Of a DNA stretch of 43,958 nt, positions 1,513-17,435 are shown one piece after another (positions within the stretch are counted from its first letter, which is position 1; the number at the start of each line of letters is the position of its first letter). The notes under the pieces are model-generated. The model was not told the DNA's origin. It saw nothing but the letters and a program-made list of their open reading frames with translations, and ran no database searches. This stretch comes from Clostridia bacterium (GTDB lineage: Bacteria; Bacillota; Clostridia; Christensenellales; UBA1242): contig JBKSNA010000033.1 of NCBI GenBank assembly GCA_046882085.1, positions 1 to 43,958 of the forward strand, in the 5' to 3' direction. Position numbers and translations under genes: made by a program.

Positions 1513-4500
1513 ATGAAAAAAATTAGTAGCTTATTATTAATTTTGATAACGATGGTGTCGTGTTGTTTTTTGACAGCATGTGGTGATAAGTACTCGAAGT
1601 TAAAGATGACATTCGAATCTATTTCAGGCGAAACATTAGAAAGTGTTAATTTTGTGATCGATGATGATAATGAGTTTGGCGGTATAGATATGGGTGTTAG
1701 ATTTTCAGATATTGAAAAGAAACATATTGGCGAGATTGAGGTGAGATCTGAGCCGGAAGGTTTGATTACTGTATCTAATTACTCGCTTGTAGGCTCGTTG
1801 TATACATTTAGAGTCGAAGCTAATAGCGCAAGTGATAATGCAAAGTTGATTGTTAGACATATGTCATCTAATAAATCGCAATCTATTGATTTGACTATTG
1901 ACCAGAAATCCAAAAATATTAATGTTAATAACTCTAAATATGTGGTGGATATCTCTAACAAAGAATCTCGATATATAGATTTCACACAAATTCTTACAAT
2001 GTATCCTACCGGTAGTACTGATAAAATTCAATTTGCATTGAAAGATGGTGAAACTTTGCCTACGGGAATAACTCCGATAAAAAGAGATTCACAAGATCTA
2101 AATTATTCTGGATTTAGTTTTGCTGAAGATTGCGGCGTGGGCAATGTAAAAATTTATCCAATAACCACAATGCATGGTTATGAAGATACAAAATATGAAA
2201 ACGAAGTTATTACAATACACTTCATTGATGGTATCGAAGAGATTGGATTGGTGTCAAAAGAAGCTCCAGAAGATGTGGATAAGTATATCGGATATGGTTC
2301 AATAGAAGATCCTATATATTTATTAGCTAATGGTGGCGATGCTGATGTAGATTTGAGATCTTACATGGTTGGAGTACAGTATCTCGATGGATCAAACTAT
2401 GTGGACATTGGTACATATTTAGAATATTATACAGTTAATGCGGAATGTGATGACTCAAATGGTGAAAGTAATAACATAATGACTAGTGTGGTAGGAGATG
2501 GTGTGGTAGCGATCAGTGCTACAGCGCATACTAATAATCCTTTGGAAATAAATGTGTCTATTGTTCCAAATGGTTATGTGGGTGAAATTCAAGAAATATC
2601 ACAAAAACTGTACGTAAAAGGTGTAATGAGACCTAATACTGTCGAAATGTCAGATGGTTCAGATCTGATAGATTATGAACTTGATAGTGAAGATGTGCGC
2701 AACTATGAAATAGATGTGTACAACTATTATGAAGATAGTACGTTAGGTAAAAAATTCACATTCAAGTCTATTACATTTGGAGAGTCGCCAGTATTAGATG
2801 GTATGGATAAAATCCGCATTGTGATAAGTGCTGATTTGATCGATAATGATGGTAATATATATTTAAACGATACATTCACTGAAACTACAAACGCATCTGA
2901 ATTCAGATTAGAAAATGGAGATACCAAGGCTGTAGGCAGTAGTAGATATTTGTTAGATTTTCATTTAGAGACAGATGAGAGAGTGAGATTCTATTGGAAT
3001 GGAAAGAATATGGTGTCTGAACCAATAGACAATAATAGTAAGATATACATTATTACGAAAGGTCTTGCTGATGATCTCACTAAGCCAATAAGTGATCTAG
3101 AATTTGTGGTGTCGACCATTAATGAATATGGTAAAGAGGAATTGGGATATACATATTTATCTACAGCACAATCAAAACATATCAATGTAAATGTTAATAG
3201 AATGGAAGGTGTTAAAGCATTAGACGTGTATATGGCACTTGGTAATGATACTAAATACGAAACAATTAAAGATCCGGCAATGAATGTATTGAAGAATGCA
3301 TCTAAGATTTATATCAATAGAAATAACCTACCTGTATTAAATGGTGTGGAATATCCTTATTACTATCTCTATTTATCTAGTGATAGTGCTAAAGGTCCTA
3401 ATAAGAATACTGTAAATAATGTTGATTTTGAATTGAGTGTAACTGCAGATTCTAATAAAAATAATCCTTTGATATTGAGCGATGGTGTTACTGTTGGTAA
3501 TAGTGGTTTAGTTAGACATGAGACTATTAGTTACATTAAATTAAAATATTACAATACTACAGATGTGGGCGAATATACCATTAGTTTCATTCAGCCAGCG
3601 TCAGGATTTAGTAAGAGTATTAATATATATATTTACGAAACTATTTCCGATGCAGGATTGAGTGATTTAATTGATTTACCTACTGATGATAAGTTCTTCA
3701 AAAATAGTGGACTATATGATACGTACCTTAGTACGCCAGATCCTGTGGTATCGCCTGTAGTGCCAGAGTACGGAGAAGAGCCCGTAGAGCCTTTGTCTGA
3801 CGAGCCTAGTCCGTTCTATGATGTGTATATAATTAATTCGGGTAGAGCGTTCGATATAGAAATAATGCTAACTGATGCTTTGAAAGCATCTGAGAAGATG
3901 GGATTCATTGAAGGTTATGCATTTGAATATGATATGGTGAAGTATGATAATGAATTTAAGCCTGCTAATATAAACGGAATAGATCAATATTTTAGTCGTA
4001 GTCATACTAGTGCTACAGAGAATTATGCTAATATTAGTTTCAAGCAAGGCACGTATATTGGCGGTATTAGATTTGTCAAATTGACAGCAGAAGTATCAGT
4101 GAAGACATATACTGACGTTTTGACAGAGGGAGAATCTTTACCTATAACTTATGATATGTATTTCTTCATATATGATGAGATAAAAGACACGGATATTAGT
4201 CTAGATAGATCTACAGATACTGTGTATGCTAGAGATTATTTGGGAGTATTTGACAAAGAAGATAGTCAAATGTATCTTGATTTAGTATTAGATGAAAATT
4301 TATGGCATTATACACAAATCCAACAAGACGACAATAAGACTAAATGGGGAATTAATAGCAATAAGGTAATTAAAGATAGTATTACCGATACTCATGCGGA
4401 ATTGACCTTTAATGGAGATAATGACAATGCTCTATATCAGGTAGAAATTACTGCTAGTATCAAGCAATTTGGTCGTACATTTACTAAGACTTGTAAGATA

Positions 4501-14370: not shown

Positions 14371-14599
14371 ATTATCTCCTAATAATTATTATATTACTTA
14401 GCTTGTGCATTATTGTCAACAAAAAAATCAAAAACAAAACAATATTTATTATTACAAATAATTAAATTTAAATAAAATTAATATAGAAAATTCAATTTTA
14501 CTCTATAAAATAGTGCAAAATAGCAATTTACAAAAAATAAAAAAATTTATAAAAAATCAAAAAAAATATCGAAAAATATTAGTAATTAATTATTCTTTG

Positions 14600-14608
14600 T
14601 GTTATAAT
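14600..14608 (+). promoter_or_regulatory. extended -10 promoter element of the AT-hook protein gene
   Basis: TGtTATAAT at 14600-14608. RBS AAGGGG lies 6 nt before ATG 14652. Preceded by phased A-tracts at 14532-14576. Confidence 0.5.
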
Positions 14609-14651
14609 AACTTTATAGAAAATTCCGTTATGGAGATTTCAAGGGGTTAAT

Positions 14652-17165
14652 ATGTATAATTTTTTTAAAGATATTCACAATTTCTTTATATCTCTAACTA
14701 TTCCTTTAGGACGTACTGAGATATTCGTGATTTTTGGTGGATTCTTCTTAGCTACTATATTGTGCGTATTGATATTGACAGCACGAGCATATGAGTCTAG
14801 ATTGATCAAGGCTATTGATATGTTCAATAATTATTTCATCGATAATGCACAGATTAATGAAGATAATTTGGTAGCGTTTAATAATAAGATGAAGTCTAAG
14901 AAGGTGCCTAAGCAATTAAGAAAACAATGGCAACAATTTGTATTATATCGTGAGAATAATGCTAGTCATTATATGTCCTTCGAGAACTGTGTGTCTAATC
15001 CAATTAGAAATAGTAGTTTCAAGATTGATATCAAAGTAATGAATATCATTGCATACATTACTGCATCTCTAAGTTTCTTATTGACAATGTATTGTGAAGA
15101 TATCAGTTTCTTGTATACTTTGCAACAAGCTATTATTACTCCGGTAATTATTCTATTACTTAATTATCTTGTAACCATATTCTTGGATCTAAGACATAAT
15201 GCTATTGTGAGCGATTTGTATCAAAATTATCAATATTTTGAAGTAAACATCGATAAGGCAACAAAGACTCTACCTGATTATGTAGACTATGAAGTATTGT
15301 TCGATAAGAATGAGATTAAGCGTGGTATTCCTATTCTTTATGCATATTTGCAAAAACGTGCTGAAGAAGAGCAACGCGAATTAGAGCGCGCTAGATTAAA
15401 GAATATTGAACATGAGAAATTTAGCTTTGATGAAGCAGGCGTGGCTGGATCACTAGTATTAGAGAGAGCGATGCAAGAGGCTGAGAACTACATAGCAGAG
15501 CGTAAGAAGTATAATCAAGATACTGAGCAGATCAATACAGATATTACTCAGGAAGATATGAATTATCGTGAGATTACTAAAGAATACAATAGACAAATGC
15601 AAGTTAGTAAAGAGTCGTTCGCTAACTACAAAGCGCAACTAGAAGAAGCATCATCTAGTATTGAGGCGAACTATCTCAAAAAACAACAACAACAAGAATT
15701 GGATCGTCAGAGAAATCTAGAGAGAGAATTTGATACTGCTACTGAACGACACAAGAAGGTAATTCAATCATATCAATCAGAATTAGATACTGTAGACAAA
15801 TTCCGTGCAGAGAGTAGAAAGAATCTAGAGTCTGCTATGATGAGTGAGTTCAGTTCTTATAGTAGTAAAGTTTATGACGAAGCTAAAAAGCAAGCTGAGT
15901 TGAAGCAAAAAGAAAAATTTGACAAACTAAAAGCTAATATTAAAGAATTAGAAGAAAGAATTGTTAGTAAAGATCATGAATTAGAACATATCTATGCTAA
16001 GCATCAAGAATTGACTGAAGCATTAGAAAATAGCGGAGAATTAAGTGCGGTACAAGATATGATGAATCAACAATCTTATGTAGCACCTACTCCAACATAC
16101 GAAGAGCCACAAGACAATGGTGAACAACCATTAGAATATGTGCCAGAGTATGAAGATGTGAATTACGAAGAACCTGCTAATCAAGAGTCTGAAACTTTTA
16201 ACTATGATACAAATGAAGAAGAAAGTTTCGATTTTGAACCAATTTCAGAGCAATTTGCAGAAACTAACAACACTGAAACAGAAGAAACATTCAATTATGA
16301 GCCGATTGAGGAAGAAGAGAAATTTGATTATGAACCTGAGAATCTTGAGTCTGAAGACAATATAGAATCAGAAGAAGAAATCAAATTCAACTACGAACCA
16401 ATCGAAGAAGAATTGACTGATTTAGACACTGAGCCAGAACAAGAAGCTGATGAAGATTTCGAGCCAATCAAAGACGATGAAGAAGGTTATATCAATCCAT
16501 ACTTAGAGCCTATAAAACAAGAAGAAACTAAGGTCGATGACTCCACCGACCAAGAGAATGAAAGCATCGAATCAGGGGAAACAATAGATGTGATTATAGC
16601 TCCTAAGAAGAAGGCTGGTAGACCTAGAAAGATCGTAGATCCAGAGACTATTAAACCTAAGAGAAGCGTAGGTCGTCCTAAGAAACTAGTGGACAATGAG
16701 CCAAAACAAAAGAAAAAAGCAGGAAGACCTAGAAAGGTAGAAATAGTAGATGCTGAACCTAAGAAAAAAGTAGGCAGACCTAAGAAAGAAACAGTTGAGA
16801 TCGTAGACACTCCTAAGAAGGCTGGTAGACCTAAGAAAGTGGTAGTATCAGAGCAACCGATGAAGAAAAAAGCAGGTCGTCCTAAGAAAGTAGTGGATAC
16901 TACAGAGACTACCGAGAAGCGTCCTGTAGGTCGTCCTAAGAAGGTCGTAAAGCGTGGAGTAGGTCGTCCAAGAAAAGAGAAGATCGAAACAACTAAGCGT
17001 CCTGTAGGTAGACCAAAGAAGTCAGACAGCATTGCTAAAAATGATCATGTAGATATTGATCTATATCTTCAAGAGATTGATAAGGCGATCGCTAACGAAA
17101 ATGCGGTAATCGAAAAAGCTCGTAAAGAACTTGAGAAAAAGGCTAAAATCAAAACTAAAAAGTAA
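14652..17165 (+). CDS. membrane-anchored coiled-coil protein with acidic repeats and nine C-terminal AT-hook-like GRP repeats
   Basis: TM segments near residues 22-44 and 130-180, then a long charged coiled coil. F-N-Y-E-P-I-E-E-E type acidic repeats at about nt 16195-16500. Nine copies of [KR]x[AV]GRP[KR]K at about nt 16600-17025. Confidence 0.8.
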   Translation: MYNFFKDIHNFFISLTIPLGRTEIFVIFGGFFLATILCVLILTARAYESRLIKAIDMFNNYFIDNAQINEDNLVAFNNKMKSKKVPKQLRKQWQQFVLYRENNASHYMSFENCVSNPIRNSSFKIDIKVMNIIAYITASLSFLLTMYCEDISFLYTLQQAIITPVIILLLNYLVTIFLDLRHNAIVSDLYQNYQYFEVNIDKATKTLPDYVDYEVLFDKNEIKRGIPILYAYLQKRAEEEQRELERARLKNIEHEKFSFDEAGVAGSLVLERAMQEAENYIAERKKYNQDTEQINTDITQEDMNYREITKEYNRQMQVSKESFANYKAQLEEASSSIEANYLKKQQQQELDRQRNLEREFDTATERHKKVIQSYQSELDTVDKFRAESRKNLESAMMSEFSSYSSKVYDEAKKQAELKQKEKFDKLKANIKELEERIVSKDHELEHIYAKHQELTEALENSGELSAVQDMMNQQSYVAPTPTYEEPQDNGEQPLEYVPEYEDVNYEEPANQESETFNYDTNEEESFDFEPISEQFAETNNTETEETFNYEPIEEEEKFDYEPENLESEDNIESEEEIKFNYEPIEEELTDLDTEPEQEADEDFEPIKDDEEGYINPYLEPIKQEETKVDDSTDQENESIESGETIDVIIAPKKKAGRPRKIVDPETIKPKRSVGRPKKLVDNEPKQKKKAGRPRKVEIVDAEPKKKVGRPKKETVEIVDTPKKAGRPKKVVVSEQPMKKKAGRPKKVVDTTETTEKRPVGRPKKVVKRGVGRPRKEKIETTKRPVGRPKKSDSIAKNDHVDIDLYLQEIDKAIANENAVIEKARKELEKKAKIKTKK

Positions 17166-17170
17166 TAAAA

Positions 17171-17199
17171 AATGGACTAAATTTAGTCCATTTTTTTTG
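17171..17199 (+). terminator. rho-independent terminator
   Basis: ATGGACTAAA/TTTAGTCCAT stem followed by T8. Confidence 0.8.
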
Positions 17200-17249: not shown

Positions 17250-17435
17250 TTAAGCATTAAGAGCAGTTAGTAATTCGTCTACATTTAGTTCGTGTACTTG
17301 GCAGGCTTCTTCTAATGATTCCATCTGGGCACATGGACAATATATACAATGCAAGCCGAAGTTGGTAAGTATCTCTTCTGCATTAGGGTGATTTTCTAAT
17401 ACGAAACTAATTAGATCTGTTGCTTTGAATTTCAT
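17250..17435 (-). CDS. DUF1858 / hybrid-cluster-protein-associated redox disulfide domain protein
   Basis: 61 aa with the pattern LENHPNAEEILTNFGLHCIYCPCAQMESLEEAC. RBS AAGGAGAG. Confidence 0.65.
   Translation of the reverse strand: MKFKATDLISFVLENHPNAEEILTNFGLHCIYCPCAQMESLEEACQVHELNVDELLTALNA

Follow-up and report, generated by a model that had tools for sequence, protein, structure and literature searches.

The DNA considered here (the window) is a stretch of 43,958 nt, contig JBKSNA010000033.1 of GenBank assembly GCA_046882085.1, from a Clostridia bacterium of the genus Onthoplasma (family UBA1242, order Christensenellales). The source genome is 791 kb in size and 34% GC. At positions 14652–17165 of the window, on the forward strand, lies an uninterrupted open reading frame (ORF) of 837 codons plus stop, for which at least 344 homologues were found; the 120 that were listed are of similar length. 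From N to C terminus, the predicted protein consists of a membrane domain with three transmembrane helices (TM1–TM3), a long charged helical stalk, a variable acidic linker, an array of nine AT-hooks and a conserved terminal helix. We propose that the protein oligomerizes into a membrane stalk to which AT-rich DNA is tethered, and that it does not act as a motor, an explanation to which we would give roughly an even chance.

The AT-hook array spans residues 651–800 (16602–17051, + strand) and carries a net charge of +35. Nine GRP cores, at residues 656, 674, 691, 708, 725, 742, 760, 771 and 786 (nt 16617–17015), are found in the contexts KKAGRPRK, RSVGRPKK, KKAGRPRK, KKVGRPKK, KKAGRPKK, KKAGRPKK, RPVGRPKK, RGVGRPRK and RPVGRPKK, in that order. 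All nine hooks have the form [KRSPG][AV]GRP[KR]K, and most are 17–18 residues apart. An earlier note on this DNA, made from its letters without database searches, had described nine AT-hook-like repeats here, and the exact contexts bear it out. The Pfam family AT_hook (PF02178) matches the protein with 30.6 bits, compared to a gathering cut-off of 17.4 (E 1.9e-7). When the whole protein was shuffled (n = 20,000), GRP occurred 0.04 times on average and never more than twice; shuffling of the tail alone (residues 651–800) gave a mean of 0.13 and a maximum of 3, and the observed nine lie far above either distribution. By Pfam's own threshold, the hooks are genuine AT-hooks, for which binding to the DNA minor groove is predicted. 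Among ORFs of at least 80 amino acids (aa) in the 791-kb genome, this is the sole one with two or more GRP[KR] motifs.

The canonical RGRP, with two arginines as in HMGA, is found in none of the nine hooks, the residue before Gly being Ala (five hooks) or Val (four). The 120 closest homologues all have between 4 and 11 hooks (median 8), with a median spacing of 18 aa. Across this set of 987 hooks, Arg directly precedes GRP in 51%, and 97% conform to GRP[KR][KR], with RK or KK after the core. Codon usage within the cores of the source gene varies (GGT, GGA or GGC for Gly; AGA or CGT for Arg; CCT or CCA for Pro), and the 24-nt hook units share 66% identity in DNA and 71% in protein. Tandem Repeats Finder reports just an 18-nt × 1.9 trace. 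From the variety of synonymous codons, along with this bare trace, we reject the idea that the array arose by recent slippage of the DNA and conclude that it is maintained as protein sequence. The earlier note had argued the same from the codons, and the retention of hooks in all 120 closest homologues agrees with it.

The N-terminal part of the protein (residues 1–256; 14652–15419, + strand) was assigned as a ZorA/ExbB/TolQ-like membrane domain, based on AlphaFold2, Foldseek, hydropathy and charge. An amphipathic helix (residues 2–16) is followed by TM1 (21–44), a conserved cytoplasmic helical loop (45–121) and TM2 (122–147). TM3 starts at residue 153 as part of one long helix that runs on to residue 206, with the membrane part reaching to about residue 180. 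In an alignment of this domain from 63 sequences, 51 columns are invariant, and conservation is very strong in the TM1–TM2 loop and after TM3 among 20 full-length homologues. The TM1–TM2 loop is rich in K and R (14 in total), and the TM2–TM3 loop contains neither. This pattern, taken together with the N-out, C-in class of fold, predicts that the stalk and hooks are cytoplasmic, the orientation on which the tethering idea of the earlier note depends.

An AlphaFold2 model of residues 1–300, built from the 63-sequence alignment, had a predicted local distance difference test score (pLDDT) of 83.6 and a predicted template-modelling score (pTM) of 0.64. In a Foldseek search of the PDB with this model, the top 25 matches were all ZorA, TolQ or ExbB. 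The best was ZorA 8qyd_A (E 5.6e-4, probability 1.0, template-modelling score (TM-score) 0.50–0.60), with MotA farther down the ranking. We also modeled a short relative from another family of the order (P0267; 402 aa, 17% identical), obtaining a pLDDT of 76.9, and here too ZorA came first in Foldseek, followed by ExbB, TolQ and PomA. The two models are not entirely independent, since sequences from the long subfamily were part of the P0267 alignment, and all structures are single-chain predictions. On the basis of these models, a resemblance in fold to ZorA/ExbB/TolQ is well supported. The roughly three transmembrane segments counted in the earlier note are borne out by the prediction and are more than a generic anchor: they belong to a conserved domain with the predicted fold of a 5:2 motor A subunit.

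Remote homology to the ZorA family is plausible but unproven. No model in Pfam or NCBIfam covers the family, the hook motif excepted; a scan of the protein against NCBIfam returned no family, and a Pfam scan of five short relatives returned nothing above cut-off. Among the PADLOC ZorA models, the lone match was a coiled-coil match to ZorA3 (E 0.011). When a profile restricted to Onthoplasma (A2) was compared with single MotA and ZorA-like sequences using hhalign, the result was not significant but indicated a common loop motif, P..L..W..FL. A combined family alignment (A3) was then compared with a profile of the genuine clostridial ZorA family (A4), which gave a probability of 53% and an E value of 1.3e-4 over 151 columns. 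In this match the P..L..W..FL loop motif, TM2, TM3 and the helix after TM3 are all in register.

Beyond the membrane domain, residues 227–480 (15330–16091, + strand) form a long, charged and highly conserved stalk, delimited from the model helices, the alignment and periodicity. Helices at residues 227–256 and 264–299 are present in the AlphaFold2 model, and the stalk is almost invariant to about residue 400 in the 20 full-length homologues. Over residues 264–480, hydrophobic periodicity peaks at 3.66 residues, and a peak of this size is exceeded in 0.2% of shuffles. Across the family, however, the value is mixed, at either 3.48 or 3.66. We had considered whether the periodicity proves that the stalk is a right-handed coil like that of ZorA, and this division reduces it to a hint.

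Between stalk and hooks lies the acidic linker (residues 481–650; 16092–16601, + strand), which was defined by charge, motif count and alignment, and has a net charge of −61. It aligns poorly and varies in length among homologues; an acidic block N-terminal of the first hook is present in 120/120 of them. Five acidic aromatic motifs, F[ND][YF][ED][PT] or, with the preceding residue, [TSK]F[ND][YF][ED][PT], occur at residues 516–583 (window positions 16197–16412 cover residues 516–587), matching the acidic F-N-Y-E-P-type repeats that had been pointed out before. In the linkers of the 120 homologues, F[ND][YF] is seen 113 times, compared to ∼10 expected, most commonly as TFNYLDE, and just 33 of the 120 carry two or more copies. 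Possibly this element serves a partner as a short linear motif.

The protein ends in a conserved helix (residues 801–837; 17052–17162, + strand), DIDLYLQEIDKAIANENAVIEKARKELEKKAKIKTKK, recognized from its conservation in the alignment. A related helical element also ends the short relatives that have no hooks, as seen in distant members of the family and in the model of the short homologue. In these relatives, the C-terminal 70–80 aa are confidently predicted to make up a three-helix element (residues 329–401 in the P0267 model, pLDDT >90), the first helix of which is similar to the DIDxYLxEID helix that ends the long form. No convincing PDB match was found for this three-helix element.

We looked for the subunits with which a motor of this class would work. 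No match above threshold to PF01618, PF13677, PF02472, PF00691 or the PADLOC ZorB1 profile (PDLC00609) was seen in the source genome and in 9–12 same-genus genomes per profile. Control genomes and a flagellated relative did yield matches to these families in the same searches. A weak MotB_plug match in the source genome is YajC, encoded between tgt and secDF, and the single weak ZorB1 match, in a sister genome, has stop codons inside. In ∼70 loci, we found no conserved small gene adjoining the AT-hook gene. The nearest candidate for the ion path in TM2, position 141, varies between S, A and C within the family; TM3 contains an invariant proline (Pro164) and no conserved Thr or Ser. Given that no B subunit is detectable in these genomes, the protein is probably not a working ion-driven motor. 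We also rejected membership in a Zorya defense system: the neighbors of the gene are not zorB, zorC, zorD or zorE, it is a core syntenic gene, and no ZorB1 match rises above threshold. In view of the missing B partner and of the failure of sequence-based membership, we file the protein as a ZorA-shaped membrane stalk and not as ZorA.

A genuine ZorA–ZorB pair is encoded in a related Christensenellales genome (ORFs 1168–2718 and 2719–3237) and served both as a comparator and as a positive control for the B-subunit search. Its A subunit (516 aa) matches MotA_ExbB with 25 bits and PADLOC ZorA1 with an E value of 5e-19, and has ∼490 homologues in Clostridia metagenomes. The product of the adjoining gene matches ZorB1 (4e-11) and contains a transmembrane aspartate in the sequence FSDM.

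The AT-hook gene is present in 24/24 same-genus genomes and in 7/7 sampled genomes of three other UBA1242 genera. The long form is found in every UBA1242 genome sampled, and the family is confined to the Christensenellales, with no member outside the order in ∼380 sampled Clostridia genomes. Short relatives of 289–558 aa are spread over about five further families within the Christensenellales; these contain the membrane domain, the acidic linker and the C-terminal helical element, and lack the long stalk and the hooks. An exhaustive profile search yielded 264 clusters at 50% identity. Three or more hooks are found in 47 of the 116 near-full-length representatives, another 15 have strongly basic tails of other kinds, and 54 have weakly basic tails. 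In 7 of the 15 strongly basic tails without hooks (e.g. P0191), H1/AlgP-like KKPAAKK repeats occupy the same position as the hooks. On a tree of the N-terminal domain, nearly all hooks fall in one clade (55 representatives, 46 with hooks), and the number of changes in tail state is 8, compared to 36.7 for shuffled labels. Because the hooks cluster in this way, they are best regarded as a derived, clade-wide module and not as part of the family core, and one whose insertion split an acidic linker from a terminal helix that are both older. That sister clades bear KKPAAKK repeats where the hooks would be suggests selection of the tail for polyanion binding, in parallel with CarD (see below).

Two smaller observations concern related genomes. 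In CALCEI01, a metagenome-assembled genome (MAG), two copies of the gene lie on different contigs, one encoding 596 aa with two GRP cores and the other 654 aa with none, so both are without most of the array; the two could stem from a mixture of strains that includes truncated variants, or the tail may truly have been lost. Secondly, Onthoplasma has one strong ParB_N gene, and in larger relatives within the order there are two side by side (a pair of the Noc/Spo0J type), in what is a very small sample. The source MAG contains no ParB_N gene, probably due to its incompleteness. Loss of a Noc-like membrane–DNA factor in the AT-hook lineage is possible; this is a hint from a small sample, and we do not use it as evidence.

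The genes around the AT-hook gene encode QueH, alanine racemase (Alr), a divergent Zn_peptidase_2 protein, a DUF1858 protein and an LtaS-type sulfatase. This order is kept in ∼60 related loci, with the gene between those for Zn_peptidase_2 and DUF1858, and the recurrence indicates that it is a vertically inherited core gene. The same window also holds ORFs of 3498 and 1856 aa. Direct reading of the sequence upstream (14532–14608, + strand) reveals a block of A-tracts at 14532–14580 and an extended −10 element, TGTTATAAT, at 14600–14608. This region is likely a sigma-A-type promoter. One caveat here is that a consensus scan finds numerous promoter-like sites across the AT-rich upstream stretch, making the evidence for this particular call weak. 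The A-run block, which would make an ideal target for AT-hooks, lies inside a 281-nt intergenic region common to the AT-hook gene and the divergently transcribed gene for Zn_peptidase_2, and autoregulation is conceivable. A Shine-Dalgarno-like AAGGGG (14641–14646, + strand) is located 5 nt 5′ of the ATG. At the other end, a terminator scan identified a perfect palindromic hairpin (17167–17196) with a 13-bp stem and A6/T6 flanks, and the neighborhood annotation places the convergent DUF1858 gene at 17250–17435 (− strand). The palindrome is likely a bidirectional terminator that serves both of these genes, and the AT-hook gene looks monocistronic.

A different neighborhood, not visible from this window, is seen elsewhere in the order. 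Within UBA1242, the three other genera have the gene directly 3′ of addB–addA on the same strand, and so do all five of the other families that were examined, with gaps of roughly 30–200 nt; corA comes next in most of these other families. Protein identity across these addBA-linked lineages goes down to 17%. In Onthoplasma the linkage is broken. There, addA is on another contig of the source genome (C39:30279–32504, − strand), where it is cut by the contig end and followed by genes for a small membrane protein and mini-RNase III, and by rlmB, a sigma factor gene, dnaX, ybaB and recR. The comparison of gene orders indicates that in Onthoplasma the AT-hook gene has moved from an ancestral site after addBA. 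We take the link to addBA as a lead to a DNA-end or DNA-uptake context, and not as proof. It cannot be obligatory, since it is broken in Onthoplasma though the gene there is fully conserved.

How these parts could work together is outlined in the following model. The three-helix ZorA/ExbB/TolQ-like domain would anchor the protein in the cytoplasmic membrane, probably as an oligomer and possibly as a pentamer, by analogy with the proteins that it resembles. The conserved helical stalk, ∼250 residues in length, would project into the cytoplasm, and the disordered acidic spacer would present the hooks and may also shield or regulate these basic elements, as in HMGA and CarD. Nine AT-hooks per chain would grip AT-rich DNA in its minor groove, largely irrespective of the exact sequence, and the conserved terminal helix would presumably meet a partner. 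In this way DNA, most likely the 34% GC chromosome, would be held at the inner face of the membrane. The earlier note had offered a membrane tether, or else a nucleoid-organizing or xenogeneic-silencing factor. Since the tail is predicted to be cytoplasmic, a membrane-to-DNA tether is the most economical reading. Xenogeneic silencing is unsupported: this is a core gene in fixed synteny, and the hooks cannot single out foreign DNA because AT-rich DNA is everywhere in a 34% GC genome.

Several points weigh against the tether model. The Foldseek matches are modest, with E values of 5.6e-4 to 0.03 and TM-scores of 0.42–0.60 for the two models. Pfam MotA_ExbB (PF01618) does not match the protein at E ≤ 1, and the Onthoplasma-only profile gave noise against PDB sequences (E > 1) and no significant match to the clostridial ZorA profile (25 columns, E 0.04). 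Regarding the hooks, the first Arg of RGRP is missing from all nine, and binding may be weaker or altered; in addition, AT-hook-type motifs can also bind RNA. The weakly basic tails of 54/116 representatives imply that the core function of the family needs no AT-hooks. Lastly, loop and stalk are so highly conserved as to suggest protein partners, which a simple tether leaves unexplained.

One alternative, which we consider unlikely, is that the protein serves in envelope-linked DNA surveillance or repair, with a descendant of ZorA holding incoming or broken DNA and presenting it to AddAB. This would be a functional parallel to Zorya, in which ZorAB directs the DNA-binding ZorC and the nuclease ZorD (PMC11946911). 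The position of the gene directly after addB–addA in three UBA1242 genera and five other families, over identities as low as 17%, speaks for this idea, as does the ZorA-like predicted fold. However, the linkage is absent from Onthoplasma, where the gene is fully conserved, no ZorB, ZorC or ZorD is present, and the gene is a core gene in fixed synteny, not part of a defense island. Moreover, gene order shared within one order of bacteria may be mere inheritance.

A related and slightly less likely view is that the family branched off from the ZorA lineage of 5:2 motors as a B-less housekeeping form, or is related to the ancestor of that lineage. It would form a pentameric ring whose stalk bears ∼45 AT-hooks and would handle DNA at the membrane together with AddAB, the genes for which ancestrally lay just upstream. 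In a bolder form of this view, the protein may still turn, driven by an unrecognized partner.

It is also possible, although we give it only a small chance, that the tail binds another polyanion, such as polyphosphate, anionic lipid head groups or RNA (in which case RNA would be handled at the membrane), with the GRP cores acting as general basic, flexible units. The lack of the canonical first Arg in all nine hooks would fit, and relatives have generic K/A/P-rich or weakly basic tails instead. Extended AT-hooks have been reported to prefer RNA, another point in favor. On the other hand, GRP[KR][KR] is kept in 97% of the 987 hooks and canonical RGRP is seen in 51%, H1/AlgP-like repeats are classical DNA binders, and the ancestral neighbors of the gene are DNA-repair genes.

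We think it quite improbable that the protein is part of a working ion-driven 5:2 rotary machine with a cryptic B subunit, in which a pentameric stalk moves, twists or spools DNA via ∼45 hooks. Likeness to the ZorA/MotA superfamily and the extreme conservation of the loop, TM3 (with its invariant Pro164) and stalk speak for such a machine. The hendecad-like 3.66 periodicity in part of the stalk also fits, the ZorA tail having been modeled as a right-handed coiled coil (PMC11946911). Against this stand the MotB_plug, ExbD, OmpA and ZorB1 profiles, unmatched in the 9–10 same-genus genomes searched with each, and the lack of both a conserved small adjoining gene and a recognizable conserved Thr/Ser pair in TM2 and TM3. 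Furthermore, the usual generators of proton-motive force are reported missing from the lineage, UBA1242 being described as without F0F1 ATPase, respiration or pyrophosphate pump (PMC12306168).

A special case of the tether would be a sporulation-specific, RacA-like protein anchoring the chromosome at the membrane or pole during asymmetric division. RacA is not known in Clostridia, which we count in favor of this possibility, along with the presence of FtsK/SpoIIIE. UBA1242 has also been found to keep sporulation genes unexpectedly, despite genome reduction (PMC12306168). But upstream of the gene one sees what resembles a common vegetative promoter of the extended −10 kind, and the gene is not in a neighborhood of sporulation genes; such a specialized role seems very doubtful. 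Finally, an extracellular tail that binds extracellular DNA, teichoic acids or the surface of a partner cell would suit the proposed dependence of the UBA1242 lineage on other cells, its many unusual surface proteins (PMC12306168) and the 3498-aa and 1856-aa ORFs of this window, but is hardly credible given that the positive-inside pattern and the ExbB/TolQ/ZorA fold put the C-terminus inside and that export is unlikely for a highly charged coiled-coil region of 650 residues that lacks a signal peptide.

A membrane domain shaped like a motor ring and a multivalent minor-groove-binding tail, both predicted here, have not previously been seen together, and in the literature searched we found no paper on bacteria that joins ZorA or MotA to AT-hooks. 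Few bacterial proteins tether DNA directly as integral parts of the membrane, AT-hooks are mostly regarded as eukaryotic, and chromosome organization and segregation are poorly known in bacteria with very small genomes. The family is conserved in every sampled genome of UBA1242, a widespread gut lineage. Should the kinship with ZorA be true, a Zorya-type stalk would exist outside defense and without a motor partner, which bears on the origin of Zorya. Should the family be a B-less ZorA offshoot that works with AddAB, a Zorya-type architecture would be linked to ordinary handling of the chromosome or of DNA ends, and the protein would be the first integral-membrane, AT-hook-based nucleoid tether in bacteria. 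In addition, the exchange of AT-hook and H1-like tails between sister clades constitutes a natural experiment on whether low-complexity DNA-binding modules are interchangeable, as shown earlier only for CarD.

Of the systems with which the protein can be compared, ZorA, from the anti-phage motor ZorA5B2 of Zorya (PDB 8qyd, 8qyk, 8qyy and 8vvn; PMC11946911), is the best Foldseek match for both family models. Like ZorA, the protein is predicted to have three transmembrane helices, a helical cytoplasmic domain between TM1 and TM2, and a TM3 that continues into a long cytoplasmic helical tail. The profile–profile match is weak but in register, and the tail of ZorA belongs to a DNA-directed system, which we count as a further likeness. 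Unlike ZorA, the protein has no ZorB partner, ZorC or ZorD and no recognizable conserved polar pair along the ion path. It is encoded by a core gene in fixed synteny, not by a mobile defense gene, and its tail ends in an acidic spacer and AT-hooks that are absent from ZorA. TolQ, ExbB and MotA (PomA), of PF01618, are similar in predicted topology and fold, occupying ranks 6–50 in both Foldseek searches. These proteins always work with TolR, ExbD or MotB and have short tails, whereas neither the partner families nor PF01618 were found in the genomes of this genus that were searched.

For the tail, the closest parallel is the HMGA-like domain of Myxococcus xanthus CarD (PMC4374960, PMC2919716), another bacterial protein in which AT-hooks in an array come after an intrinsically disordered acidic stretch. 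As with CarD, relatives have a histone-H1-like K/A/P region in place of the AT-hooks, and for CarD an H1-like domain has been shown to function equivalently to the HMGA-like domain (PMC4374960 and its reference 5). CarD is a transcription factor with four RGRP hooks on a soluble RNA-polymerase-binding domain, whereas here nine A/V-GRP hooks are borne on a membrane stalk. Consistent with this difference, a Pfam scan of the AT-hook protein shows AT_hook only and no CarD_CdnL_TRCF domain.

The proposed outcome, chromosomal DNA held at the membrane, is the same as that achieved by Noc and RacA of Bacillus subtilis, to which the protein has no relation in sequence or fold. Noc is a member of the ParB family, a site-specific CTP switch with an amphipathic helix, and RacA is a soluble helix-turn-helix protein that docks on DivIVA. 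The AT-hook protein, unlike either, is predicted to be integral to the membrane, and its proposed binding would be non-specific for AT-rich DNA.

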